DNA of 64,000 nucleotides, taken from contig JAOUMY010000005.1 in NCBI GenBank assembly GCA_029881255.1, positions 259,531 to 323,530 on the forward strand, given 5' to 3'. Position numbers and translations under genes: made by a program. A model generated the notes under the pieces. The model did not search any database. It was not told the origin of the DNA and was given only the letters and a program-made list of their open reading frames with translations. The DNA comes from Gammaproteobacteria bacterium (GTDB taxonomy: Bacteria; Pseudomonadota; Gammaproteobacteria; S012-40). Positions 4,854 to 63,593 of the stretch are shown here, in pieces (position 1 is the stretch's first letter; each line of letters opens with the position of its first letter).

Positions 4854-6671
4854 TCAGAAATTGCGATTAATCTGAAAAATCAACGATATGGATCCCAAAC
4901 CGGAATTACTTATAACACCACGCCCAACGAGTGAAGTCGCCAGTTTGCCAATGTTATACCCAAGCTGATTCTCCCAGTCTCCCTGCAAACGATCTTCCCC
5001 CGACTTATTGATCGTTGAAGAAAGATCAAACTTGGTCCGAAATTTGAGCTTATATATACCAAACAAACGCGAATGTTGGTAGCTCAATCTGCCCGTTGCC
5101 ACCGTCAGAAACTCGTCGAAAAATTTGGCATCGCTGCCTCCTTCGTCCCGACGAGAACTCTGCAAGGAAAAATTTCCACTCCAGGCGCTTAAGCGCGTGA
5201 TAGGCATGGATCGGGAGATTTGCATATTTATAATCTGCATCTCCAACGAATTATCGAAAAAGCTTCGAGTATCCATTGCCGTTAATTGCGCATACGCGCC
5301 GCCAGTGTTCACATCCAGATTCCACGCAAAGCTGCCTGAGTGTGACACCGTCAGTATCGAACCAAGATCTTTTGTTACTAAATATTCGCGTGCTTGTTGC
5401 GTGAAACTAGTACGCAAACTCGATCGGTTTCCCGTAATCCAATGTCGACTAATGCTATGACCAAGTCCTGCGTTCAAGTTTTGCGAAAGATCTAAGTCGA
5501 AGTCTGTTGAAGCACCTATTTTGCTGCGTTCACTTCCGGCGTCATTACCTATTCCAGCATTAGAAAACCAGCGATATTGAAAACCACGGCGTATCACTTG
5601 GTCAGATTGATACATTAACTGTACATTCTGTTTGGAACTTATATTCTGGCGACTCTCCGTATCGAGCGCGTTTCCACTAACTGACGCGGTCAGTTGCGTG
5701 CGACGATTTATCGTATAGGTACCTGAAAGAAAAGCATTCACGCCCTGGGTATCATTAATCAAAGAATCGTTATTATTGGTAAACTGGCGCAAATTTACAC
5801 GCAAAGCACCGTTAAGAACATATGGCCTGTAAACCGGACGCCAGTAGAAAAAGCTCGAGGCCTGACTCACTTCACTACTGCTGTCATTCGTACCACTCTT
5901 GTCCGTGTAATTGATATGAGACCCAAGAGTCTTTATATAAAACTCACTATTCGGAACGTAATGGTGCATGGCGGTGAGATACCCAGCTTGCGTTTTGCTC
6001 CCCGGGGTAATCCCTCCCTCTCTTGTCTGATAAGAACCTGTCGCATAAAAATTATGGTTGGCAACACGCGACTGTATTTTTCCGCCATAAGTCTGTTCAC
6101 TTGAATCACCAATCGTACTTGACGTCTGTCTGGCCCGATCCTGTATCCACAAATCTAACTGATCACCGCTACGACCGATAAAACTCTGCTTAACACCGAA
6201 AAAACGCGTTTTGATATCGAGCCCAAGCCTAAGCAGATCTTTTCCTGGAAATTTTACTACTGAATCACTAGTCGCAGGATCAAGATTGTTCTGCATGTAA
6301 AAAGAAGCCACCATCGGCGCACGACTGCGGGGTAAAAATCGAAAATCGCTTCTTGAAGACAACAATAAGGATCGCTTCTCTACGCCCTCTTCCACCAATG
6401 AAAACGCACCGGTACCGGATCCGCCCACGTTAAACGTCGCAAACCATGGCTGCCATAAATAACTATCCGCGTTTAATGAACCGACTACATAAGAGCTCTG
6501 TGATCGCTTTGCCTCTTCAGTGACATACAAAGCGTAGTTATAGCCCAAGTTGCCACTCAAATTCAGGGGAGACGTCGATGCCTGAACGGCCGACAGAAGA
6601 AGACCGCAAAATAATATCGCGAATACCACAGCTGCAGGTCTAAACATTATCACCTGCACTGTATGCACCAT
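4854..6671 (-). CDS. Large outer-membrane beta-barrel (porin-like) protein, about 600 aa. It has no CxxCH motif.
   Basis: Signal peptide (AVQAS). Ser/Thr/Asn/Gln/Gly/Tyr-rich composition with alternating hydrophobic residues throughout. C-terminal Phe (…INRNF) as in many outer-membrane proteins. Confidence 0.6.
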   Translation of the reverse strand: MVHTVQVIMFRPAAVVFAILFCGLLLSAVQASTSPLNLSGNLGYNYALYVTEEAKRSQSSYVVGSLNADSYLWQPWFATFNVGGSGTGAFSLVEEGVEKRSLLLSSRSDFRFLPRSRAPMVASFYMQNNLDPATSDSVVKFPGKDLLRLGLDIKTRFFGVKQSFIGRSGDQLDLWIQDRARQTSSTIGDSSEQTYGGKIQSRVANHNFYATGSYQTREGGITPGSKTQAGYLTAMHHYVPNSEFYIKTLGSHINYTDKSGTNDSSSEVSQASSFFYWRPVYRPYVLNGALRVNLRQFTNNNDSLINDTQGVNAFLSGTYTINRRTQLTASVSGNALDTESRQNISSKQNVQLMYQSDQVIRRGFQYRWFSNAGIGNDAGSERSKIGASTDFDLDLSQNLNAGLGHSISRHWITGNRSSLRTSFTQQAREYLVTKDLGSILTVSHSGSFAWNLDVNTGGAYAQLTAMDTRSFFDNSLEMQIINMQISRSMPITRLSAWSGNFSLQSSRRDEGGSDAKFFDEFLTVATGRLSYQHSRLFGIYKLKFRTKFDLSSTINKSGEDRLQGDWENQLGYNIGKLATSLVGRGVISNSGLGSISLIFQINRNF

Positions 6672-6845
6672 GCGTCACAAATAACAACGGCACCCCTCCA
6701 CCGATGAATGAGACTATTCATATGCTTTCAGGAAAACACAGACAGACCGTGAAACGGTCGTGACGAGCTCTCCTCCCTATTCAAATTTCTGAAGTCGTTT
6801 TAACTTGCAAAAACTCGCGACTTTCAGCGTTGTAAGGCTATCGGT

Positions 6846-7820
6846 CTATAGACCAGCCATATCGATTGTTATAGTTGCCCTGGATTTCAGATTTCGCAAC
6901 AAATCTGCCCAGGCTTGTTTAGCCCGCTCCCGTTGCCATAACTGGCGGACTCGATCCTTAACCTTCTCGTATTCATTCAACTGGGCGTCAAGCGTCTCAT
7001 CCAAACGCAGTATTGCAACGCCCTGCAACATCATCACGGGGTCACTAATTTCATTTTCTTTCATTCCATTGAGGACTTTCTCTGCCTGTGGAGAAAGCAT
7101 ACCCTGATGTAGAAAGCCCATATCGCCGCCGTTAGACGCCGATGGATCACCAGAATGTATACGTGCGGCGTCAGCAAAGTCCGCTCCACTACGCAAGCGC
7201 TTAACCAGTTTTTGCGCTTCGTCGCTAGCAGCCTGCCAAACGTCAGCACCAGACGACGGCGCGACCTTTAACAGGATTAGCGAAACGCGGCGCTGCATAG
7301 GCGTGGTAAATAGCTCGCGGTTTCCATCGTAAAATTTCTGCGCTTCTTTTTCATTCGGGACACCTATCTCTTGCACCCTCTGACGAAGTTGTTCCAGCAA
7401 ATTTTCTTCTTCCAGCGCCGCACGCAAACCAGCCAGCATGCCCTCACGGTTACGCTCCCAATCTGGACGTGACGCATAACGTTTCTCATAAGTCTTGAGC
7501 TGAGATTCAACAGACTTAGCATCGGCTGTAATTTTCTGCTTCTTCGCCTCACGCAACAACAACAACCGCTCAATCAAGGTATCAGAGACTTCTTGTTTGA
7601 ATGCCTCAAGCTGTTGTTCAGGAATCTTGCCGTGGTAAAAGCGCTTGCGCACACCCGCCTGATAGGCCATACGAAAATCGTGTTTGGAAATCTGTTCGCC
7701 GTCTACGACAGCAAATGCATCATTCTCTTTGGCTGTTGCTTTGGCATCGGGCTTGGCATAGGCAGCTACCTGCCACAAAACCAGCAAAACGACTAAGCCC
7801 GCTTTTACAACTCCGCGCAT
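6846..7820 (-). CDS. Periplasmic peptidyl-prolyl cis-trans isomerase, SurA/PpiD-like with a parvulin domain.
   Basis: Signal peptide. Parvulin signature ...SGDPSASNGGDMGFLHQGML... A chaperone-like N-terminal helical region is present. Confidence 0.7.
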   Translation of the reverse strand: MRGVVKAGLVVLLVLWQVAAYAKPDAKATAKENDAFAVVDGEQISKHDFRMAYQAGVRKRFYHGKIPEQQLEAFKQEVSDTLIERLLLLREAKKQKITADAKSVESQLKTYEKRYASRPDWERNREGMLAGLRAALEEENLLEQLRQRVQEIGVPNEKEAQKFYDGNRELFTTPMQRRVSLILLKVAPSSGADVWQAASDEAQKLVKRLRSGADFADAARIHSGDPSASNGGDMGFLHQGMLSPQAEKVLNGMKENEISDPVMMLQGVAILRLDETLDAQLNEYEKVKDRVRQLWQRERAKQAWADLLRNLKSRATITIDMAGL

Positions 7821-52014: not shown

Positions 52015-52983
52015 CTACGCCAATTGGCATACAGCTTCCTTACGCCGCTCCATCAATTGAGTGACTATCGGTTCACAAATCGTACGTATCGCCTGAGACA
52101 TGTGGGTATTGGGTATTAACAAGGTATTTGGGCGAGTAAATTTAGCACCAGGGAATTTCTCTTTATAGGCAATCAGATTATATTTTTTTGGCTCTCGAAA
52201 ACGCACCACCACCATACACTCGTCTTCCAGAGGAACATCGGTCAACACAAATGGATTGGAGGTATCCACCATGGGAATACGTTGAAAATTGATATCCGTC
52301 CAGGAAAACTGAGGCGTAATAAACTTTACGTAATCCGGCATGCGTCGCAGAATGAGATTAACAGCGTCCTGTGCGGAACAAAAAGTCAACTGACAGGCTC
52401 TATTGATTTTTTGCATCCACTCAAGGTTGATGCTCGGCACTATCCCTATCAGCAAATCGACCCACTGTGCGATATCGACACCTGGGTCTTCGATCGTTTG
52501 GGATTGCTGACGTTTTTGTATCACCAGCGGGTTATTTGACTGGCTCAATTCGCGTTTTGACCACAGAGATTCAATATAACCGCCATGATGCCCTTCGTAA
52601 AAAAGCACATCGGTATCCACAGGAATTTCTTCCCAAGCAGAAAACAACCCTTTTTCAACACCTAATCGCTGCGCCTGCTCATCGGACTCAACATATTCAC
52701 GCACCGTTCCACTACCGCTCCGTGAAAATTCCTGAAACAAGCCTTCAAGGCGATTCAATAAATTGATTTCGGGGCCAAAAGCACTCAATGGCGTTCCAGA
52801 CTTTTCTGCATCTCGAAACATGCGTACCAAGTCTTTACCGGGATATTTACGAAAACTATTGCCGTGGACAAAGCAGGCGTTTACATTTCCCCGCTGAAAA
52901 ATCTGACGAAAGTCGTTAGCCGCCGATGATATACCCGATCCCGCCGAGCCCGTAACTGCGATGACAGGGTATTGACTGGACAT
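52015..52983 (-). CDS. cbbP: Phosphoribulokinase.
   Basis: N-terminus YPVIAVTGSAGSGISSAANDFRQIF (P-loop) and overall length are typical of bacterial PRK. Confidence 0.8.
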   Translation of the reverse strand: MSSQYPVIAVTGSAGSGISSAANDFRQIFQRGNVNACFVHGNSFRKYPGKDLVRMFRDAEKSGTPLSAFGPEINLLNRLEGLFQEFSRSGSGTVREYVESDEQAQRLGVEKGLFSAWEEIPVDTDVLFYEGHHGGYIESLWSKRELSQSNNPLVIQKRQQSQTIEDPGVDIAQWVDLLIGIVPSINLEWMQKINRACQLTFCSAQDAVNLILRRMPDYVKFITPQFSWTDINFQRIPMVDTSNPFVLTDVPLEDECMVVVRFREPKKYNLIAYKEKFPGAKFTRPNTLLIPNTHMSQAIRTICEPIVTQLMERRKEAVCQLA

Positions 52984-56578: not shown

Positions 56579-57166
56579 TCAATCAAAGTCCGCAACTAAA
56601 GCATTGCGATAATTTTCGGGAAGTGGCTTCACTACCGTTGAATAGGCATTGTGATCAACACCTATCGCGATCGCTGCACCGGTTCGGGCCTTTTCGATCA
56701 TACCTGGGGTAAACTCGAATCGTAGAAAATGTACCGAGGAAGTTTTTTCATCAGTCTCGCGATCCAAATCTTCGTTTGCGATTGGATATACTTTGTCGCA
56801 ATCATCAATTTGCACCCAAACTTGGCGCTCTATACCGATGAGCTGCCCCAACATCTTTTTACGTTCATCCACGTCAGGGTATTCGATCATAAACGTGGCC
56901 TTCCAGTTAGATCCATCGGGAATGAGTGGATTGTAGGCTTCCAGTTCTTCTTTTATACCATCGGCTTCAAAGATCTTTTCGATGCGTAGCATTTCCTGCA
57001 CCTGATACTGAACCGTCAGACGGTCTTCAAAATACAAGGTCGCATTCTGCCCCAAGTGAACCGTTCGGTTCTTTTTATGTTCGATGACTTTGGCGCGAAA
57101 CTCCTTTCGAGCTTCCGCATAGGATTCCAGAGACATTAAATCACTACGTGTAAGTTTGTCAGACAT
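56579..57166 (-). CDS. DUF3501-family protein.
   Basis: Sequence and gene context: follows a CCG-domain Fe-S protein and a rubrerythrin, a recurrent triad. Confidence 0.6.
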   Translation of the reverse strand: MSDKLTRSDLMSLESYAEARKEFRAKVIEHKKNRTVHLGQNATLYFEDRLTVQYQVQEMLRIEKIFEADGIKEELEAYNPLIPDGSNWKATFMIEYPDVDERKKMLGQLIGIERQVWVQIDDCDKVYPIANEDLDRETDEKTSSVHFLRFEFTPGMIEKARTGAAIAIGVDHNAYSTVVKPLPENYRNALVADFD

Positions 57167-57204
57167 GCTACCTCTACTATCTGTCCATCACTGATACAGT
57201 AAAA

Positions 57205-58548
57205 CTAAATTCCGTAAGCCATACGCAAAAGACTCAAGGGATGTGTCGCACCACGACCATCTTTTAAACCGTTTTCTATCTGATCGCCCGCCATTGGACA
57301 GTCGCTGGTATAGTGATCTGGTTCAAATTTCTTGACCTTGTTGATCACGGGTCGACATATCTTCATGGAAATATCGTGGTACTCTTGCTTTACCGCATAC
57401 GTCCCATCGTGGCCCGAACATCGCTCAATAAGATCGATTTCAGTTCCTGGCGTTAATGCCAACACATCCCGGGTTTTCAAACCGATGTTCTGTACTCGCA
57501 AATGGCAGGATGCATGATACGACACCTTACCCAAACCTCGCTGGAAACTGGTGTTTAACTTTCCAGCCTTGTGTCTAAGCATGAGATATTCAAACGGGTC
57601 ATAGATGTGTTGTTTTACTTTTTGTACATCTCTATCATCCGGGAACATCAAGGGCAATTCCTGTTTAAACATCAATACACAGGACGGAACCGGTCCAACG
57701 ATATCAAAACCCTGCTCTATCATTTCAATCATTACCGGGATGTTTTTGTTTTTTGCCCTTTCAACTGCCTCCAGATCACCGAGCTCCAACTTAGGCATAC
57801 CACAACATACTTCGGAATCTATTAGTTTGGTATGAAGTTGATTGTGTTCGAACACGGCAACCAGATCTTCCACTATCTGTGGCGCATTGCGGTTGCCATA
57901 ACAGGTAACAAACACCGCAACCTTGCCTGCGGTCTGCTCCGTAGCCTCTGATTGCGCCAAAGACTTATGGCTGGCTAGCCGTTTGCGCGCTGTATGGCTA
58001 TGATATTGCGGAACCACCGCGTCAGTATGTATACCGAGTACGCTTTGTAAAATCTTGCGCGTAGCCTGAATTTTATTGGCGCTGTTTACCACACCAGACA
58101 CAACGGGAATACCTGCCAAAGAGCCAACGGCATCTGTCGAGGTCAGTATCTTGTCTCGCAGCTTCACGTCCCCCTTGCGATGCTTTACTGCCTTTGCACG
58201 CAACATCGTGTGTGGAAAATCCAGATTCCATTCGTGCGGGGGAACATAAGGACACTTCGTCATATAACACAAATCACACAAATAGCAGTGATCGACGACT
58301 TTCCAGTAATCTTTTTTCGCGACTCCATCAACTTCCATGGTGTCGGACTCGTCTACCAGATCAAAAAGTGTCGGGAAGGCATTGCAAAGACTGACGCATC
58401 GGCGACATCCATGACAAATGTCATAGATGCGCTCAAGTTCGTGCATGAGTGATTCTTCGTTATAAAACTCGGGGTTTTTCCAGTCGAGCGAATGTCGCGT
58501 AGGAGCCTCCAGGCTACCTTCACGCACAGGGGATTTCGGTCCAGACAT
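57205..58548 (-). CDS. (Fe-S)-binding oxidoreductase of the HdrD/GlpC type, with two 4Fe-4S ferredoxin motifs and two CCG cysteine-rich domains.
   Basis: CHGCRRCVSLC and CYLCDLCYMTKCP ferredoxin-like motifs. CCG-type motifs CCGMP...C and CSGHDG. Confidence 0.75.
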   Translation of the reverse strand: MSGPKSPVREGSLEAPTRHSLDWKNPEFYNEESLMHELERIYDICHGCRRCVSLCNAFPTLFDLVDESDTMEVDGVAKKDYWKVVDHCYLCDLCYMTKCPYVPPHEWNLDFPHTMLRAKAVKHRKGDVKLRDKILTSTDAVGSLAGIPVVSGVVNSANKIQATRKILQSVLGIHTDAVVPQYHSHTARKRLASHKSLAQSEATEQTAGKVAVFVTCYGNRNAPQIVEDLVAVFEHNQLHTKLIDSEVCCGMPKLELGDLEAVERAKNKNIPVMIEMIEQGFDIVGPVPSCVLMFKQELPLMFPDDRDVQKVKQHIYDPFEYLMLRHKAGKLNTSFQRGLGKVSYHASCHLRVQNIGLKTRDVLALTPGTEIDLIERCSGHDGTYAVKQEYHDISMKICRPVINKVKKFEPDHYTSDCPMAGDQIENGLKDGRGATHPLSLLRMAYGI

Positions 58549-58593
58549 AAAACTCCCTTGGAATGACAGTCTGTTTATTCTTTTTTTGGTGAG

Positions 58594-58622
58594 AAAAACT
58601 GGCCACGGATGTGGCCAGTTTT
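58594..58622 (-). terminator. Perfect hairpin terminator/attenuator between the rubrerythrin gene and the Fe-S gene. Minus strand reads CTGGCCAC-atcc-GTGGCCAG followed by TTTTTCTC.
   Basis: 8-bp GC-rich stem flanked by an A-run and a T-run. Internal to an apparent operon, which suggests polarity control giving more rubrerythrin than downstream products. Confidence 0.5.
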
Positions 58623-58638
58623 ACGTGTACTCTTTGAT

Positions 58639-59055
58639 CTAGTCGAGTGTGTCGAGGGCCTTCTGAAAACGATTAGCGTGAGAACGCTCGGCCTTTGCCA
58701 GTGTTTCAAACCAATCAGCAATTTCATCAAAACCTTCATCACGAGCCGTTTTAGCCATACCCGGATACATATCTGTGTATTCATGGGTTTCGCCCGCAAT
58801 CGACGCCTTGAGATTATCGGAGGTATTTCCAATTGGTAATCCTGTTGCAGGATCGCCTACCTCTTCAAGATATTCCAGGTGACCATGGGCATGACCGGTT
58901 TCACCTTCTGCCGTCGAACGGAAAACAGTTGCGACATCGTTATAACCTTCGACGTCTGCTTTGGCAGCAAAGTAAAGATAACGACGATTTGCCTGAGATT
59001 CGCCGGCAAAAGCGTCCTTCAGATTTTTTTCTGTTTTACTACCTTTTAACGACAT
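58639..59055 (-). CDS. Rubrerythrin-family ferritin-like diiron protein; no rubredoxin domain.
   Basis: ExxH diiron motifs ([18 protein letters not shown]) in a four-helix-bundle sequence. Confidence 0.85.
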
Positions 59056-59144: not shown

Positions 59145-60956
59145 TTATGATTCAACATCGACACGCGTTTGCCACTCAACAATTGCACTATATGATGAGT
59201 GTTCAGCAACAAGCTGTGAGTGAGTACCAACATCCACACTTCCATCACCGTTAAGATATACAACACGATCCGCTTCACGAATTGAAGAAAACCGATGGGC
59301 TATGATTATCGTAGTTCGTCCCACGCATAGTCGCCGAATACTTTGCATCAGATGCTGTTCCGATTCGCTGTCAAGCGCGGAACTGGGTTCATCCATAATC
59401 AGAATGGGAGCATTCCGCAAAAAGGCACGTGCAATCGAGAGCCGTTGCAACTGACCACCAGACAAAGTAAAACCGCCTTCGCCTATGGGTGTATCCAAAC
59501 CCAACTCCAGATTTCGAATAAATTCCCAACTACCACTATCGACACAGGCCTGTTGCAACATCGAATCACTTGCATCAGGACAAGCGAGCAGTAGATTCTC
59601 CCGAATACTGGTTGGTAGTAACAATGGTTCCTGCCAGACGACTGCAATGTATTTGCGCAGCGATACCGGGTCATACGCTGAAATATTCTTGCCGTTGAAC
59701 AAGATCTCGCCTTGCTGTGGATCATAAAAACGCAATAACACATTTACCAACGTAGACTTACCGCTGCCGCTCGCTCCTACTATGGCGACTGTTTCACCGG
59801 GAATGAACGCCAGATCGACACCACGAAACAAAGGTTGAGATCCGGGATAGGCAAACCACAAATCCTGTATATCGATACGCACGCCGTTATCACCGGCGAC
59901 GAAATTCTCGCACCCGCTCTGCCGTACATCTGCGCTTTGCGCCAGCACTTCTTCCAATCGTCTACTCGCCGCAAGTCCGGCTTGCGCCTGAAAGGGCATC
60001 TCTGCAAGACCTCGAACAGGAACGGAAAGATATCCAAGATAGATCAGAAAGCTGACTAAAGAACCGGCGTTTAGCCTGGATTGTTCGACAAAGCCGATAC
60101 CAACATATATGACAGCAAGAATACACACATACATCAATGCGCTCAGGCTGACGCCGAACGATGCCTCTAGCCAACGCTCTTTCATCGCTGCCCGATACGC
60201 GTCATTGAAACGCTGAAGGTGTTGCTGACGCATGCGTGTTGATGCGCCGAAACTGGTCATAGGTTTCAGAAAACTGATCAAGACATTTTCGAACGCCAAC
60301 AATTTGCCATTGTTGTGCATAAACTGGCTTGCGGCCTTGTGTTTACGATTAACAAATATTTTCTGGTGCATCACAAACAATGGCGTCAACATCGTTGCGA
60401 GTACCGCAAGATATGGATCTAAAAAAAACAACATCGCCACATAAAACAATATTGTTAAAATGTGAGATAAAACATATATCGGATATTCAATCACAACACG
60501 TTGAACTTCATCCACGTCATGACTTAAACGTGACAGCAGATCACCCTGCTCAAATTTGTCGGAAACTGGTGCAGAAACTTCCAATAAATGACCGAGAAAA
60601 CGGTTACGCAAGCGGCCAACAAATCGTAATCCCGCACCACTCGATAGTATACGCGCAATAAAATGGGCCGATTGATTCAGAATAACCATTACCATCAGCC
60701 CTAAAATGACAGACAATAGCTGCTGGTATTGACTTTGAAAAATGAGATTAAGCGGCTGACCTAACAACCAAATCAGTACTGTATTGGATATAGCGATCAA
60801 AAGCACCGCGATCGCTGCAAGCTTTATTGTCGATAACTCGTCAACCAACTCCTCCGCATAACGCTTTTTGATGCGGCGGGTTTCACTCAATAGCTCAAAT
60901 AGACCTTTAAACAGCAATGACTCATCTCCGACGGTTAGGTATCCATTCTGTACCAC
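59145..60956 (-). CDS. ABC exporter, fused TMD-NBD half-transporter (MsbA-like). It has no C39 peptidase domain. GTG start.
   Basis: Six-TM N-terminal domain. Walker A GASGSGKST, signature LSGGQLQRLSIARAF, Walker B ILIMDEPSSALD. Confidence 0.85.
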   Translation of the reverse strand: MVQNGYLTVGDESLLFKGLFELLSETRRIKKRYAEELVDELSTIKLAAIAVLLIAISNTVLIWLLGQPLNLIFQSQYQQLLSVILGLMVMVILNQSAHFIARILSSGAGLRFVGRLRNRFLGHLLEVSAPVSDKFEQGDLLSRLSHDVDEVQRVVIEYPIYVLSHILTILFYVAMLFFLDPYLAVLATMLTPLFVMHQKIFVNRKHKAASQFMHNNGKLLAFENVLISFLKPMTSFGASTRMRQQHLQRFNDAYRAAMKERWLEASFGVSLSALMYVCILAVIYVGIGFVEQSRLNAGSLVSFLIYLGYLSVPVRGLAEMPFQAQAGLAASRRLEEVLAQSADVRQSGCENFVAGDNGVRIDIQDLWFAYPGSQPLFRGVDLAFIPGETVAIVGASGSGKSTLVNVLLRFYDPQQGEILFNGKNISAYDPVSLRKYIAVVWQEPLLLPTSIRENLLLACPDASDSMLQQACVDSGSWEFIRNLELGLDTPIGEGGFTLSGGQLQRLSIARAFLRNAPILIMDEPSSALDSESEQHLMQSIRRLCVGRTTIIIAHRFSSIREADRVVYLNGDGSVDVGTHSQLVAEHSSYSAIVEWQTRVDVES

Positions 60957-60980
60957 ACCGTCCTTCCTGAAGCTGAAAAC

Positions 60981-61015
60981 AAAAAAAGAGAGGCCGAAGC
61001 CTCTCTTTCTCTTTT
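60981..61015 (-). terminator. Rho-independent terminator on the minus strand about 30 nt upstream of the ABC exporter start. Minus strand reads GAGAGGC-ttcg-GCCTCTC followed by TTTTTTT.
   Basis: Hairpin at 60988-61005 flanked by A7 and a T-rich tract. Confidence 0.55.
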
Positions 61016-61155
61016 ACTACGGTTTATCTGATGATGGAACAAGTCATCAGTGATAAGTGTTCGGGTAGATACCCGCTCCCCATATCACCGCATCTACACG
61101 GCTTTCGATGTGGCGCGTGTGGTGTTGTTGTTCTTGTACGGTAGTCTGGTGTGGC

Positions 61156-61236
61156 CTACATGCCACCGCCCATTCCTCCGCCCATACCGCCCATGCCGCC
61201 GCCTCCTCCACCACCCATACCACCCATGCCACCCAT
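61156..61236 (-). CDS. Putative 26-aa Met/Gly-only peptide, MGGMGGMGGGGGGGMGGMGGGMGGGM. An overlapping 107-aa ORF in another frame (61047-61370) is the alternative reading.
   Basis: Minus strand reads AAGGAGGT-cact-ATG GGT GGC ATG ... ATG TAG. The SD is a perfect 8-mer with ideal spacing. Confidence 0.35.
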   Translation of the reverse strand: MGGMGGMGGGGGGGMGGMGGGMGGGM

Positions 61237-61474
61237 AGTGACCTCCTTCGGATAATGTAGGTGAATGCAGTCTGGAACTGCGCCATAGTAGCGCCTTGAT
61301 TTAATAGAAAAAAACCAAGACACTCGTTGAGTATAGACAATATATGTCTATTTTTCCAAAACCGGGCCAAGCCGATTTCGGGCAGAGTCTAGGCAGGCAA
61401 GATTAATCCAGGTTTAAACGTTGGAAAAAGGCAATATAGCGGCCCGGCTTGATACCACCAACCAAAACGATCTT

Positions 61475-61924
61475 TTAGCCGCCAACCACTGGCATTAGCT
61501 TGATAAAGCTAACGTCCGTCGACGGCGTTATCGTCAGTTCGTGATCAAGGCTCTGCACTTCCCTGTGATCCACCATCACGAAAAATGCTTTATTTTCAAA
61601 GGCTTTTAGAGCCTCTTCGCATTGCACCTTCCAGTCAAGATCGCGATGTTGACGCAAACGATATCCCTGACTAGTCTCCTCAGCGTCCGCAGGCTGCACC
61701 AGGGCTCGAAAATTCACCGGGCGGCGCAGATTAAAGCTTTCGGCTTCGGCCTGTACACGTCGCTCTATCAGCTCACGTAATGTCAAGCGCTCGCTCGCAA
61801 GTTTCAATTGCACTCTATGGGTACGTTCTCCACGGGCTGTTTCGTCAAAAACCGTCAATGTGGAAGGCATGGCGACCTCGCTAAACAGATTGGCATCTCT
61901 TTTATAACGAGCGTCGAGCGACAA
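61475..61924 (-). CDS. Hypothetical protein ending in ...LMPVVGG. True start is possibly the internal ATG near 61873.
   Basis: ORF with a C-terminal Gly-Gly. No confident family. Confidence 0.4.
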   Translation of the reverse strand: MSLDARYKRDANLFSEVAMPSTLTVFDETARGERTHRVQLKLASERLTLRELIERRVQAEAESFNLRRPVNFRALVQPADAEETSQGYRLRQHRDLDWKVQCEEALKAFENKAFFVMVDHREVQSLDHELTITPSTDVSFIKLMPVVGG

Positions 61925-62043: not shown

Positions 62044-62643
62044 TTGGAAGAGGCTATAACAACATTGAACTTCCAAGACCGCCGCATAATCGTCATTGTT
62101 CTGGTCTGTATTTCCATAGTCGCACTCGCGTTATTGGGTGGACTCGGCATGAGTGCGTTTATAAAAACCACAAGCACTAACGAGTTCTGTATTTCCTGTC
62201 ACGAGATGGAAACGACGGTATATCAGGAGTATCGGCGAACCACGCATTATAAAAACGTCAGTGGCGTAAGCGCCGGTTGTGCTGATTGCCATATACCACA
62301 TGACCTCGGCACAACCATCATTCGCAAATTTGCAGCCGTCAAAGATATTTATCATCATCTCCTGGGGACAATCGACACTACGGAAAAATTCGAAGCACGT
62401 CGCCTGGAAATGGCGCAAAGAGTATGGGCTTCGATGAAAGCGTCAAACTCCCGCGAATGCCGCAACTGCCACAGTTTCGACTCTATGGATATGGACAAAC
62501 AACGTCAACGCGCCTCTAAAATGCACCAGCAAGCCACTAAAGACGGTGAAACTTGCATCGAGTGCCACAAGGGAATCGCACACAAAGCAGTTCATGATTT
62601 GATGGAAACATCAGAAGAAGAAAATATTATCTTGGAGTTTTGA
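62044..62643 (+). CDS. NapC/NirT-family membrane-anchored tetraheme cytochrome (quinol dehydrogenase). TTG start is needed to include the TM anchor.
   Basis: N-terminal TM IIVIVLVCISIVALALLGGLG. Heme motifs CISCH, CADCH, CRNCH, CIECH with NapC-typical spacing. Confidence 0.8.
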   Translation: MEEAITTLNFQDRRIIVIVLVCISIVALALLGGLGMSAFIKTTSTNEFCISCHEMETTVYQEYRRTTHYKNVSGVSAGCADCHIPHDLGTTIIRKFAAVKDIYHHLLGTIDTTEKFEARRLEMAQRVWASMKASNSRECRNCHSFDSMDMDKQRQRASKMHQQATKDGETCIECHKGIAHKAVHDLMETSEEENIILEF

Positions 62644-62660
62644 ATGACGGGGATGAAAAA

Positions 62661-63593
62661 ATGAGATCAGGGAAAATTGCTCTCCTGATATGTGCCGTTG
62701 TCTCACCAAATGTCTATGCAAACAACATTGATTGGGGACAAGTGGACAGTCAGGAATTCGTTCTGTTTTATCCAGGCCAGGCCTCATGGGAATGGTTACT
62801 CACACAACACAAGGGCTCGAAGAGTCTACGTAAAGGCACTCCCTGTCTCGAATGTCACGAGACAGAAGAAAAACAGATGGGAGCAGCACTCGCCAGCGGA
62901 AAAAAAATGGATTCGGATGCCATTGCGGGCAAACCGGGTTCTGTTACCGTCAGCATCCAGGCAGCCATTGATGCGGATTTTCTGTACCTGCGCGCACAGT
63001 GGCAAGACCCAGAGTTCAGCAGCGGAAAAAAGATGGATGCCAACCACGAAACCAAATTCGCAGTCATGTTTGACGACGGCCGGGTTAAGGAAGCCGGTGT
63101 CGCCGGTTGCTGGGGGGTATGCCATGTCGACGTTGCCAACATGCCTTCTGCCGATGGTGAAAAACGTGAGTTGTATACCAGCAAATCCCGGCAGACCATC
63201 ACTCAAAAGGGCGGTGGTGATAAATACAAAGGCGTCTCGGAGTTAAAGGCATTGCTCGACGAAAATAACTTTATGGAATTCTGGCAAGCACGCCCCGGTA
63301 AGAAATCTATGGAAACGGTTTCAGGATACATCCTCGAAAAACGACATCTCCATCAGGGACAGCCGGTAACCAGTGTAGCGGAAAAAAAAGACAACGTTTG
63401 GACAGTCGAATTCAAGCGACGCCTGAAAACAACAGGCGATGGTCTTAAAAAACTCGACGCTTCCACACCGTTGCAGATAGGATTCGCCATACACGACGAT
63501 TATACCAGCGGACGCTTTCACTACGTATCGTTCGGCAAACGCCTGAGCCTCAACGGTGAAAAATCTGATATTACAGTCAAGAAAATTCACTAA
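62661..63593 (+). CDS. Periplasmic heme-binding protein with one CxxCH and one CX3CH motif; possibly an EB_dh/DOMON-like beta-sandwich.
   Basis: Signal peptide ...NVYA. CLECH and CWGVCH motifs. Follows the NapC-like gene with a 17-nt gap. Confidence 0.5.
   Translation: MRSGKIALLICAVVSPNVYANNIDWGQVDSQEFVLFYPGQASWEWLLTQHKGSKSLRKGTPCLECHETEEKQMGAALASGKKMDSDAIAGKPGSVTVSIQAAIDADFLYLRAQWQDPEFSSGKKMDANHETKFAVMFDDGRVKEAGVAGCWGVCHVDVANMPSADGEKRELYTSKSRQTITQKGGGDKYKGVSELKALLDENNFMEFWQARPGKKSMETVSGYILEKRHLHQGQPVTSVAEKKDNVWTVEFKRRLKTTGDGLKKLDASTPLQIGFAIHDDYTSGRFHYVSFGKRLSLNGEKSDITVKKIH

Follow-up and report, generated by a model that had tools for sequence, protein, structure and literature searches.

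A conserved family of Met/Gly-only micropeptides linked to one clade of ABC exporters, their most likely transporters, in uncultured Gammaproteobacteria

A 26-codon ORF encoding only Met and Gly, located beside an ABC exporter gene in a gammaproteobacterial contig, was found to belong to a real, conserved and so far unannotated gene family of peptides built from just two amino acids. These ORFs are linked to one particular clade of ABC-B exporter in uncultured Gammaproteobacteria, and the peptide is most likely the cargo of that exporter, although its function is unknown. The locus was examined within a 64-kb stretch of contig JAOUMY010000005.1 (the window, 64,000 nucleotides, whose coordinates are used below), and related loci are denoted by L followed by a number. 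The features of the locus, all on the minus strand, are as follows:

61330..61359 (-), predicted sigma70-like promoter of the M/G transcript, with -35 TTGGAA at 61359-61354, an 18-nt spacer and -10 TATACT at 61335-61330
61333..61351 (-), 19-bp palindrome ATAGACATATATTGTCTAT in the promoter spacer, a candidate operator for an unknown repressor
61241..61248 (-), Shine-Dalgarno (SD) sequence AAGGAGGT, separated from the ATG by a 4-nt spacer (cact)
61156..61236 (-), M/G micropeptide gene, with ATG at 61236-61234, 25 further codons and TAG at 61158-61156; product MGGMGGMGGGGGGGMGGMGGGMGGGM (26 aa, 7 Met and 19 Gly)
61009..61155 (-), G-poor, C/A-rich 3' UTR of 147 nt
60975..61008 (-), strong intrinsic terminator, AAAGAGAGGC-UUCG-GCCUCUCUUU followed by UUUUGUUUU
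59145..60956 (-), ABC-B half-transporter gene starting at GTG 60956 (603 aa, membrane domain plus nucleotide-binding domain, no C39 peptidase domain)

The observation behind the original prediction, a Met/Gly-only ORF with a strong SD followed by a terminator and an MsbA-like exporter, was confirmed, with small corrections. The hairpin, a 10-bp stem with a UUCG loop, spans 61008-60985 rather than 60988-61005, and the U-tract (TTTTGTTTT, to about 60975) ends about 20 nt before the exporter start rather than 30. A 107-aa ORF in an alternative frame (61047-61370) exists as described, and Tandem Repeats Finder (TRF) detected only an imperfect array with periods 9, 12 and 33. That the ORF is more than chance follows from comparative data, not from the window alone.

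To determine whether the ORF is conserved, related genomes and metagenomes were searched; absence of an M/G-only frame from them had been named in advance as grounds for rejecting the gene. At least 21 stand-alone M/G-only ORFs (13-55 aa) were found in 19 distinct loci. A DNA pattern for the C-terminal end, applied to viral contigs, mostly hit Gly/Met-rich tails of larger proteins, and an SD-anchored pattern was used instead. The 19 ORFs analysed in detail all have an ATG start, an SD core 5-8 nt before it and a stop immediately after a final Gly-Met. Their Gly codons are GGT 38%, GGC 52%, GGA 9% and GGG 0.4%, compared with 25% GGG in the adjacent exporter genes. All members with enough flanking sequence have a 3' UTR of about 80-170 nt and their own terminator, and a nearly identical hairpin follows the M/G ORF of the closest relative, L083. 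The whole predicted transcript of the window folds with z = -4.9, with the UTR pairing with the G-rich ORF; the function of this UTR is unknown. Exact look-up of nine peptides and of the 55-aa extended ORF found none in the protein collection searched, and Pfam and NCBIfam gave no family.

The linkage to the exporter was examined in both directions. The exporter has ABC_membrane and ABC_tran domains and is MsbA-like, but it scores below every curated NCBIfam cut-off, including those for the lipid A flippase MsbA (TIGR02203, 341 bits against 602; NF008381, 281 against 867), so that it is MsbA-like in fold only. All nine exporter orthologs looked up (37-54% identity) have at least one M/G ORF within about 2.4 kb, while none occurs in 652 kb around 79 non-orthologous ABC-B exporters (Fisher p = 1.8e-12). 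In the reverse direction, of nine stand-alone ORFs found by DNA pattern alone (a minimum, and a small sample of the metagenomes), four have the exporter ortholog on the same stretch, and three of the other five lie on contigs under 2.6 kb. Two pattern-found ORFs (L135 and L199) and a phage-borne one (L102) have no exporter within the DNA examined. The exporter is the only neighbour common to all lineages, and every other neighbour changes between them. The closest solved single-half structures are generic (Sav1866, MsbA and ABCB10), the nearest solved structures being lipid and drug pumps, and the membrane domain shows no Met enrichment (3.1% versus 3.4% in controls, with aromatics slightly higher); ABC-B exporters move many substrate classes, and nothing in the exporter sequence points to peptides.

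Several accessory partners recur, namely an AsnB-type amidotransferase, a periplasmic DUF255 thioredoxin-like protein, YceI and GroESL; of these, AsnB, DUF255 and YceI are absent from the window. The AsnB-like enzyme, which has an intact catalytic Cys and PP-loop, overlaps the exporter start in L084 and L251, or follows the M/G ORF and its hairpin in L130, L199 and L253. More distant relatives of this enzyme, at about 55% identity (L254 and L255), have neither the ORF nor the exporter, so it is an accessory rather than a universal partner. The DUF255 proteins encoded just after the exporter have signal peptides and a C[Y/R]WC motif. No methionine sulfoxide reductase gene and no recurrent copper gene was seen in any locus; the only hint of the latter is a bufferin-like MbnB/DUF2063 operon beside the ORF in L135.

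The predicted promoter was located by consensus scan, and its -10 context TGTCTATRCT is shared with L162 and L245 at the same distance from their M/G ORFs; promoter activity is inferred. Palindromes related to that in the window, TGAC(A/C)A-N3-TTGTCA, lie at the M/G promoters of L162, L245 and L249. Perfect matches expected in 1.9 Mb number 0.11, whereas three distinct loci have one, two of them at M/G promoters; the window copy is a 3-mismatch variant. MetJ and McbR were considered as the regulator, but the half-site spacing fits neither, and the regulator is left unassigned. The 5' UTRs cannot be aligned beyond the promoter and operator and match no Rfam family: a search of known RNA families gave only a sub-threshold hit over the terminator in the window and nothing in eight related loci. 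An RNA thermometer acting by SD sequestration was also dropped, since the unpaired probability of the SD region ranges from 0.27 to 0.80 with no consistent hairpin.

We consider the ORF at 61236-61156 to be a real protein-coding gene, one of a family of leaderless micropeptides made almost entirely of Met and Gly and transcribed from their own promoter as a short mRNA ending in an intrinsic terminator. We hypothesize that the peptide is the dedicated partner, and most probably the transport substrate, of one clade of ABC-B half-transporters, and assign this reading a probability of roughly 0.55. In this view, the strong SD in the window would give abundant peptide, while the terminator would let only a fraction of transcripts continue into the exporter gene, the usual high-precursor, low-exporter layout of peptide-export operons; with only about 20 nt between the two, exporter transcription must, by inference, read through the terminator. 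Since the peptide has no signal sequence, the exporter would carry it across the inner membrane, and in some lineages the AsnB-type enzyme would probably first modify its only carboxylate, on the invariant C-terminal Met, most likely by amidation. In the envelope the flexible, uncharged, thioether-rich chain would work alongside the periplasmic partners seen in other lineages, the DUF255 thioredoxin-like protein and YceI. Our preferred role is a sacrificial Met-based sink for oxidants, for which the Met-rich periplasmic peptide MrpX is a precedent (PMC4436054), with buffering of soft metals (Cu(I)/Ag(I)) as the second choice. The analysis itself establishes the gene family, its coding signature, the two-way linkage to the exporter and the accessory neighbours, whereas export, amidation and the envelope role are inferences from sequence and gene neighbourhood in uncultured organisms, without expression, proteomic or transport data. 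The envelope role is the weakest step, and the poor solubility of Gly/Met peptides (PMC12571646) could argue for a quite different, material-like role.

The interpretation offered in the original prediction is partly supported. Of its three readings, exporter cargo or precursor is the one favoured by the evidence. A thioether-rich peptide binding Cu(I)/Ag(I) is chemically plausible, since successive Met residues are mostly 2-4 residues apart, but metal binding was not assayed. A leader peptide controlling the terminator through Met- or Gly-tRNA sensing is not supported. It was further suggested that the 107-aa frame might be the one translated and that the repeat might be slippage-prone, and neither idea is supported. 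The 107-aa frame has no SD and no family match, starts upstream of the predicted promoter, and its extent is not conserved elsewhere. Variation in tract length between strains had been proposed beforehand as a check on slippage: four strain pairs carrying 5-58 SNPs elsewhere show no change in length, and the one SNP that falls inside a tract is synonymous. The repeat units are also heterogeneous (69-92% matches) and GGG runs are avoided, in contrast to a contingency locus.

Among the alternatives, it is unlikely but possible that the peptide is a cytoplasmic 'free GroEL tail', mimicking the (GGM)n C-terminal tail of GroEL/Hsp60 and modulating, for example, chaperonin or client folding during stress, with the exporter merely co-located in a heat-shock neighbourhood. 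The sequence is nearly identical in kind to the GroEL and mHsp60 tails; groES-groEL lies directly upstream of the exporter ortholog in L001, L086, L221 and L247 and 6.5 kb away in L249; DegP, HSP20, HtpG and Hsp15 are neighbours in L086 and L251; and the phage contig carries an M/G ORF with no exporter nearby. However, linkage follows the exporter and not groEL: the window, L083, L088, L162 and L245 have the ORF and the exporter but no groEL in the stretch, the other recurrent partners are periplasmic, and the groESL adjacency matches the ordinary cutA-dsbD-fxsA-groSL synteny of Gammaproteobacteria. A similarly unlikely alternative is an accessory or regulatory subunit that tunes the transporter, as AcrZ, CydX, KdpF and MgtS do for their partners. 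The two-way linkage would fit a subunit as well as a substrate, but known transporter-binding small proteins are single hydrophobic helices, and a chain that is 67-88% Gly cannot form a stable transmembrane helix. The wide variation in length (13-55 aa) and Met spacing is unlike a fixed binding interface, the strong SD followed by a terminator implies a large excess of peptide over transporter, and an AsnB-type modifying enzyme fits a product better than a subunit.

A leader peptide or attenuator of the trpL/hisL type is considered very unlikely, and is already largely refuted as a general explanation. In the window and five other loci the ORF does lie 107-342 nt upstream of the exporter on the same strand with a terminator in between, and the 3' UTR can pair with the ORF. 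However, the ORF is convergent with the exporter or downstream of it in seven loci (listed individually, convergent in the six loci L084, with two ORFs, L086, L221, L240, L247 and L251, and 3-4 kb downstream in two more, L130 and L253). The stop codon lies 147 nt from the hairpin in the window, too far for ribosome-position control, and no Met or Gly biosynthesis genes are nearby, the downstream gene being an exporter. Equally improbable is that the tract yields no M/G protein at all, being instead a functional RNA or DNA element (an sRNA, a G-quadruplex or a contingency repeat), a decaying relic of a groEL 3' end, or part of the 107-aa frame or of an antisense Pro/Ile/Met-rich frame. In favour of this, TRF detects a repeat, the transcript is strongly structured, the antisense frame is also open with Gly wobble changes silent in it too, gene callers chose the alternative frame in the window and in L249, and the exporter often sits after groEL, with 'PKE' preceding the tail in GroEL as in the window. 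Against it, the tract in the 19 ORFs is bounded exactly by an SD-led ATG and a stop right after a final Met, an always-Met C-terminus being very unlikely by chance with Met at about 20% of residues, and the other frames have no conserved start, stop or SD. Searches of the window with a GroEL (tblastn) and its 3' flank (blastn) matched only the repeat tract, so a groEL relic is rejected as a description of the present locus and kept only as a speculation about its origin.

No paper describing stand-alone M/G peptides was found in the literature. More tentatively, these could be the first recognised natural proteins written in a two-letter alphabet, free-standing, ribosomally made Met/Gly polymers ('free chaperonin tails') that may have been born from the 3' end of groEL. 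A dedicated ABC transporter would pump them into the envelope of chemolithoautotrophic Gammaproteobacteria, in some lineages after C-terminal amidation by an AsnB-type enzyme. There they would act as a new kind of protective agent, either a regenerable thioether sink for oxidants or soft metals or a polyproline-II, abductin-like elastic or holdase material, defining a new class of leaderless exported peptide together with its export and modification machinery.

If the peptides are made and exported as proposed, this is an unannotated gene family of extreme composition hiding below gene-caller length limits, over which the callers often annotate the wrong frame and which HMMER's composition filter rejects. 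It would provide a natural, genetically tractable test of what Gly-Met sequences do, which is still debated for the GroEL/Hsp60 tails. It would also assign a substrate to an orphan clade of ABC-B exporters, and possibly to orphan AsnB-like and DUF255 (SPATA20/YyaL-like) proteins, and add a leaderless member to the known ways in which bacteria deploy small peptides into the envelope under stress. It is also a practical warning that low-complexity micro-ORFs with perfect translation signals can be real genes and are systematically missed.

Comparison with known systems shows partial resemblances. MrpX, the hypochlorite scavenger of Azospira suillum, is likewise a small Met-rich polypeptide, proposed to work in the periplasm through sacrificial oxidation of its thioethers, but it is 20% Met and 44% charged residues, has a Sec signal peptide, and is encoded with the YedYZ (MsrPQ) reductase under SigF control (PMC4436054). 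M/G peptides have no charge and no signal peptide and would need an ABC exporter, and no Msr-family gene appears among the called genes of any locus. Met residues spaced 2-4 apart on a flexible backbone are the arrangement that binds Cu(I) and Ag(I) through three or four thioethers in the Ctr1 'Mets' motifs (MXM, MXXM), CusF and the Met-rich regions of CueO, PcoE and SilE; those motifs, however, sit inside larger proteins and usually include His. Abductin, the Gly/Met-rich elastomer of bivalve hinge ligaments, has Gly- and Met-dominated low-complexity repeats that adopt polyproline-II conformations (cited in PMC12571646), but it is a eukaryotic, cross-linked structural protein that also contains Phe, and there is no evidence that the bacterial peptides form a material.

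With regard to peptide-export operons, microcin J25 mcjABCD shares with the M/G loci a small precursor gene followed by a hairpin, an Asn-synthetase-family enzyme and a homodimeric ABC-B exporter of about 580-600 aa lacking a C39 domain. M/G peptides, in contrast, are M/G from the first residue to the last, without the leader (or follower) and core of a RiPP precursor, and contain no acidic residue that could form a lasso ring at core position 7-9; no B-type leader peptidase or recognition element was found in any locus. The AsnB-like enzyme scores 222 bits against a cut-off of 525 for the lasso-cyclase model (NF033535) and retains its glutamine-hydrolysing Cys. As a RiPP-type modifying enzyme it is adjacent to the ORF in the five loci given above but not in the window or the other loci examined, a distribution that does not settle the matter either way, and modification of the product was not measured. 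Double-glycine-leader bacteriocins are excluded, as the exporter lacks the N-terminal C39 peptidase domain and the peptide has no GG-type leader. AsnB-family enzymes known to amidate peptide C-termini (TsrC, ScdTA, AsnO of the NAGGN pathway and PesC) use ATP-dependent adenylation of a C-terminal carboxylate and glutamine-derived nitrogen (PMC13060819). The proteins found here belong to the same family but pass only the generic asparagine-synthase model (TIGR01536) and fall below the cut-offs of the NAGGN and XrtA/PEP-CTERM amidotransferase models, and the reaction is not demonstrated for them. The closest match in sequence is the C-terminal Gly-Met tails of GroEL/Hsp60, (GGM)4M and GGMGGGMGGGMF, which share the two-letter composition and the M-G-G(-G)-M periodicity and are flexible, mildly hydrophobic and populate polyproline-II helices (PMC12571646; PMC11978752). 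Those tails are 13-19-residue appendages of a 57-kDa chaperonin that act inside its cavity, whereas here no chaperonin body precedes the tract, which is a free-standing gene with its own SD, promoter and terminator, is up to 55 residues long, and is linked to an exporter.

The minus strand was read directly to examine the putative Met/Gly-only (M/G) ORF, and the observation made in the original prediction was found to be correct. The features of the locus, in the order of transcription, are as follows.

61359-61330, minus strand: sigma70-like promoter, TTGGAA-18-TATACT
61248-61241, minus strand: Shine-Dalgarno (SD) sequence AAGGAGGT, followed by a 4-nt spacer
61236, minus strand: ATG start of the M/G ORF, 26 codons encoding only Met (7) and Gly (19)
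61158-61156, minus strand: TAG stop codon, followed by a G-poor 3' UTR of 147 nt
61008-60985, minus strand: 10-bp stem with a UUCG loop, followed by a U-run reaching about 60975
60956, minus strand: GTG start, about 20 nt further on, of a 603-aa ABC-B half-transporter

The half-transporter has ABC_membrane and ABC_tran domains and no peptidase domain, and is MsbA-like but scores below every curated family cut-off. The 107-aa alternative-frame ORF noted in the original prediction is also present, and the repeat is imperfect, with periods of 9, 12 and 33. No Pfam, NCBIfam or Rfam family covers the peptide or its RNA.

To investigate whether the ORF is conserved, which had been named in advance as a test of the prediction, the genomic context of exporter orthologs was examined. 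The window comes from an uncultured organism (identical contigs exist in ENA and Logan assemblies), and its exporter belongs to a well-populated orthologous group at 37-54% identity, almost all from uncultured Gammaproteobacteria. Two orthologs (P0051 and P0112) are attributed by NCBI to Kaarinaea lacus, a nostocalean cyanobacterium, whereas all the others are gammaproteobacterial; this could reflect a contaminant contig from a non-axenic culture or a horizontal transfer. Eight further orthologs were chosen only for closeness to the window protein or for the length of their contig, and every one has its own M/G-only mini-ORF near the exporter (table below; loci are designated L followed by a number). 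Counting the window, this is 9 of 9. In contrast, 79 loci around non-orthologous ABC-B exporters (about 30% identity, 652 kb in total) contain none, the only hit being one ordinary GroEL tail (Fisher's exact test, p = 1.8e-12). The rest of the 64-kb window contains no other such ORF. The gene is thus conserved and is not a chance ORF in a repeat.

Table. M/G ORFs near the exporter orthologs in eight further loci.
Locus M/G ORF(s)
L083 cut by the contig end (13 aa seen)
L084 43 aa and 24 aa
L086 26 aa
L088 32 aa
L245 31 aa
L247 38 aa
L249 33 aa
L251 21 aa

The reverse search agreed with this linkage. Metagenome contigs were scanned with an SD-anchored DNA pattern, which returned at least nine more stand-alone M/G ORFs of 22-55 aa (a sample and not a census). 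Of these nine, four (L130, L162, L221 and L240) carry the exporter ortholog on the same stretch, three lie on contigs shorter than 2.6 kb, and two (L135 and L199) show no exporter within the DNA examined. L199 ends inside an AsnB-like gene, and in L084 and L251 that gene is followed directly by the exporter. The M/G ORF of L135 (27 aa; 5001-5084) is convergent with an MbnB/DUF692 plus DUF2063 operon (5193-7194) that is preceded by a small ORF. This is the gene set of bufferin-type copper-related RiPPs, and is the only copper-flavoured neighbour seen. A further example, L102 (381-479; IMG/VR contig UViG_3300033155_001120), is a 32-aa SD-led M/G ORF on a phage-like contig with a MazG-type pyrophosphatase and other PHROG matches, where it sits inside a tRNA array (Lys, Lys, [M/G ORF], Met, Ala, Ala), with no exporter in the 5.7 kb examined.

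Nineteen stand-alone ORFs were analysed in detail for a coding signature. All start with ATG, all have an SD core 5-8 nt upstream, and all end with Met followed directly by a stop codon, and the repeat tract and the ORF therefore share exactly the same boundaries. Since Met makes up only about 20% of residues, a C-terminus that is always Met indicates selection. The Gly codons are GGT 38%, GGC 52%, GGA 9% and GGG 0.4%, compared to 25% GGG in the neighbouring exporter genes. Residues other than Met and Gly are rare (N, R, Q, A, C), and successive Met residues are mostly 2-4 residues apart. Variation in repeat length between strains, proposed beforehand as a check on the suggestion that the tract is slippage-prone, was looked for in four pairs of near-identical contigs that differ by 5-58 SNPs elsewhere. 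No change in tract length was found, and the one SNP that falls inside a tract is synonymous.

Each ORF with enough flank is followed by a G-poor, C/A-rich 3' UTR of about 80-170 nt and a clear intrinsic terminator, and several of these UTRs begin with GCC right after the stop. The terminators of the window and of its closest relative, L083, are almost identical. The window transcript (60972-61323, minus strand) folds with z = -4.9, with the UTR pairing to the G-rich ORF, which might protect the mRNA or tune its translation, although neither effect was tested. The antisense frame (Pro/Ile/Met-rich) and the +1 and +2 frames are also open, because the repeat contains no stop codons in those frames. 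Gly wobble changes are silent in the antisense frame as well, so wobble variation alone cannot identify the coding frame, but only the M/G frame has a conserved SD, start and stop. Automatic gene callers sometimes annotate a wrong-frame ORF over the tract (79 aa in the window, 61047-61286; 92 aa in L249, 9713-9991). Where the M/G frame is 31 codons or longer it was sometimes called, yet the peptides are absent from the 15-billion-protein collection and are rejected by HMMER's bias filter, a systematic blind spot for such genes.

Two gene layouts dominate. In the window, L083, L088, L162, L245 and L249, the ORF lies 107-342 nt upstream of the exporter on the same strand, with the terminator in between. 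In L084 (two ORFs), L086, L221, L240, L247 and L251, the ORF is downstream and convergent, facing the exporter's 3' end with a gap of 214-2350 nt. In L130 and in L253, a further locus, the ORF lies 3-4 kb from the exporter and directly upstream of an AsnB-like gene.

All-against-all clustering of the neighbouring ORFs showed that only the exporter is shared by all lineages, while several accessory partners recur. An AsnB-type amidotransferase, with a class-II glutamine amidotransferase domain plus an Asn_synthase domain and with the catalytic Cys ('MCGI') and the SGGxDS PP-loop both intact, is found in L084, L130, L199, L251 and L253. More distant AsnB relatives (about 55% identity) have neither the ORF nor the exporter, and this partner is therefore specific to some lineages. 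A DUF255/Thioredox_DsbH protein of about 600 aa, with a signal peptide and a C[Y/R]WC motif, is encoded immediately after the exporter in L162, L245 and L249, and YceI is found in L088, L162, L245 and L249. A very large fused MFS/spermidine-synthase protein (about 900-1,030 aa), whose role is unknown, recurs beside the exporter and M/G ORF in L130 (1978-4668), L221 (1-1165), L247 (13085-16165) and L253 (4501-7566); L255, a locus with a distant AsnB relative, has one near that relative and a phytochelatin-synthase-like gene. Lastly, groES-groEL lies directly upstream of the exporter ortholog in four lineages, L001 (1220-3205), L086 (1155-3171), L221 (5114-6358) and L247 (6467-8488). The 'PKE(E)' codons before the GroEL tail contain AAGGAG, which resembles the SD context of the M/G ORFs. 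The micro-gene could have been born from a duplicated groEL 3' end, but no homology beyond the repeat was detectable.

None of these accessory genes is in the window, where the local context (56579-59055, 62044-63593 and 52015-52983) is specific to this genome. The exporter is followed on the same strand by rubrerythrin, a GlpC-like CCG iron-sulfur protein and DUF3501, while a NapC/NirT tetrahaem cytochrome and an EB_dh haem-b subunit are transcribed divergently upstream, and phosphoribulokinase suggests a chemolithoautotroph. The gene just upstream of the M/G ORF (61475-61870, minus strand; 131 aa, or 149 aa if started at TTG 61924) has no Pfam or NCBIfam match but belongs to a large family (1,217 representatives). 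Its AlphaFold model is confident (pLDDT 91) and matches only ubiquitin-like beta-grasp proteins (ISG15, MoaD, ubiquitin, SUMO) at weak E-values, and the protein has a nearly invariant C-terminal Gly-Gly. It looks like an uncharacterised Ubl or sulfur-carrier-like protein with no E1 or E2 gene nearby, and is not present in the other M/G loci.

The M/G promoters of L162 (11515 and 11616), L245 (9534) and L249 (9643 and 9663) carry perfect or one-mismatch copies of the palindrome TGAC(A/C)A-N3-TTGTCA, overlapping the -35 element. In the 1.9 Mb of DNA examined, 0.11 perfect matches would be expected by chance, whereas three distinct loci have one, and two of those sites are at M/G promoters. The window has a variant, ATAGACATATATTGTCTAT (61351-61333), in the promoter spacer. 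It shares the -10 context TGTCTATACT with L162, an 11-mer that occurs nowhere else among 255 loci, and the window, L162 and L245 share a TGTCTATRCT -10 region. A dedicated but unknown repressor is therefore likely; neither MetJ nor McbR spacing fits. The rest of the 5' UTR is not conserved, and neither a consistent SD-sequestering hairpin nor a match to a known RNA family was found.

Taken together, the analysis demonstrates a conserved family of translated-looking micro-genes and its specific, two-way linkage to one ABC-B exporter clade, whereas what follows about the peptide's fate and the exporter's transcription is inference. We hypothesize that the peptide is the exporter's substrate, as it has no signal peptide, yet the recurrent partners are periplasmic, and the layout of precursor, hairpin and exporter (or precursor, hairpin and AsnB-like enzyme) is the one used by peptide-export and RiPP operons. 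The evidence is entirely comparative and comes from uncultured organisms, several contexts are cut by contig ends, and expression, export, modification and function all remain to be shown. In the window, exporter transcription must pass the terminator, since only about 20 nt remain after it, which would give an excess of peptide over pump. Met1 is probably removed, because the second residue is Gly, given the established specificity of methionine aminopeptidase. Where the AsnB-like enzyme is present, the likely reaction is amidation of the only carboxylate in the molecule, on the invariant C-terminal Met, for which there is direct precedent in TsrC, ScdTA, AsnO and PesC (PMC13060819).

The role in the envelope is the least secure step. 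We favour a thioether-based protective role, meaning an oxidant sink like MrpX (PMC4436054), given the thioredoxin-like partner, rubrerythrin, and the stress-gene neighbourhoods (DegP, HSP20, Usp, HtpG, Hsp15, GroESL). Binding of Cu(I) or Ag(I), as originally suggested, is chemically just as possible but has little genomic support. A chaperone-like or elastic polyproline-II role is suggested by what is known about GroEL tails and abductin (PMC12571646).

The interpretation offered in the original prediction was thus supported only in part: of its three readings, exporter cargo is the one we favour, Cu(I)/Ag(I) binding has the standing just described, and leader-peptide attenuation is excluded as a general explanation by the convergent and downstream layouts, by the 147-nt gap between stop and hairpin, and by the absence of any related regulated pathway. 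A cytoplasmic 'free GroEL tail' is not excluded, but the linkage follows the exporter and not groEL. A transporter subunit is unlikely for a chain that is 67-88% Gly and varies so much in length. Readings of the tract as a non-coding element, a microsatellite, an alternative or antisense frame, or a groEL relic all conflict with the exact SD/ATG/stop boundaries, the avoidance of GGG, the stability of the tract between strains, and the lack of any GroEL similarity outside the tract.

No description of stand-alone Met/Gly peptides was found in the searchable literature. The nearest sequence analogue is the GroEL/Hsp60 tail, the nearest system analogues are small-peptide operons with a dedicated ABC-B exporter and an Asn-synthetase-family enzyme, and the nearest functional analogue is MrpX. 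The locus lacks defining features of each of these families: it has no leader peptide, no C39 domain, no acidic residue for a lasso ring, no chaperonin body, no signal peptide and no Msr partner. We therefore place it, on the inferred export, with exported ribosomal peptides that have a dedicated ABC transporter, from which it differs in a cargo class that is unprecedented.
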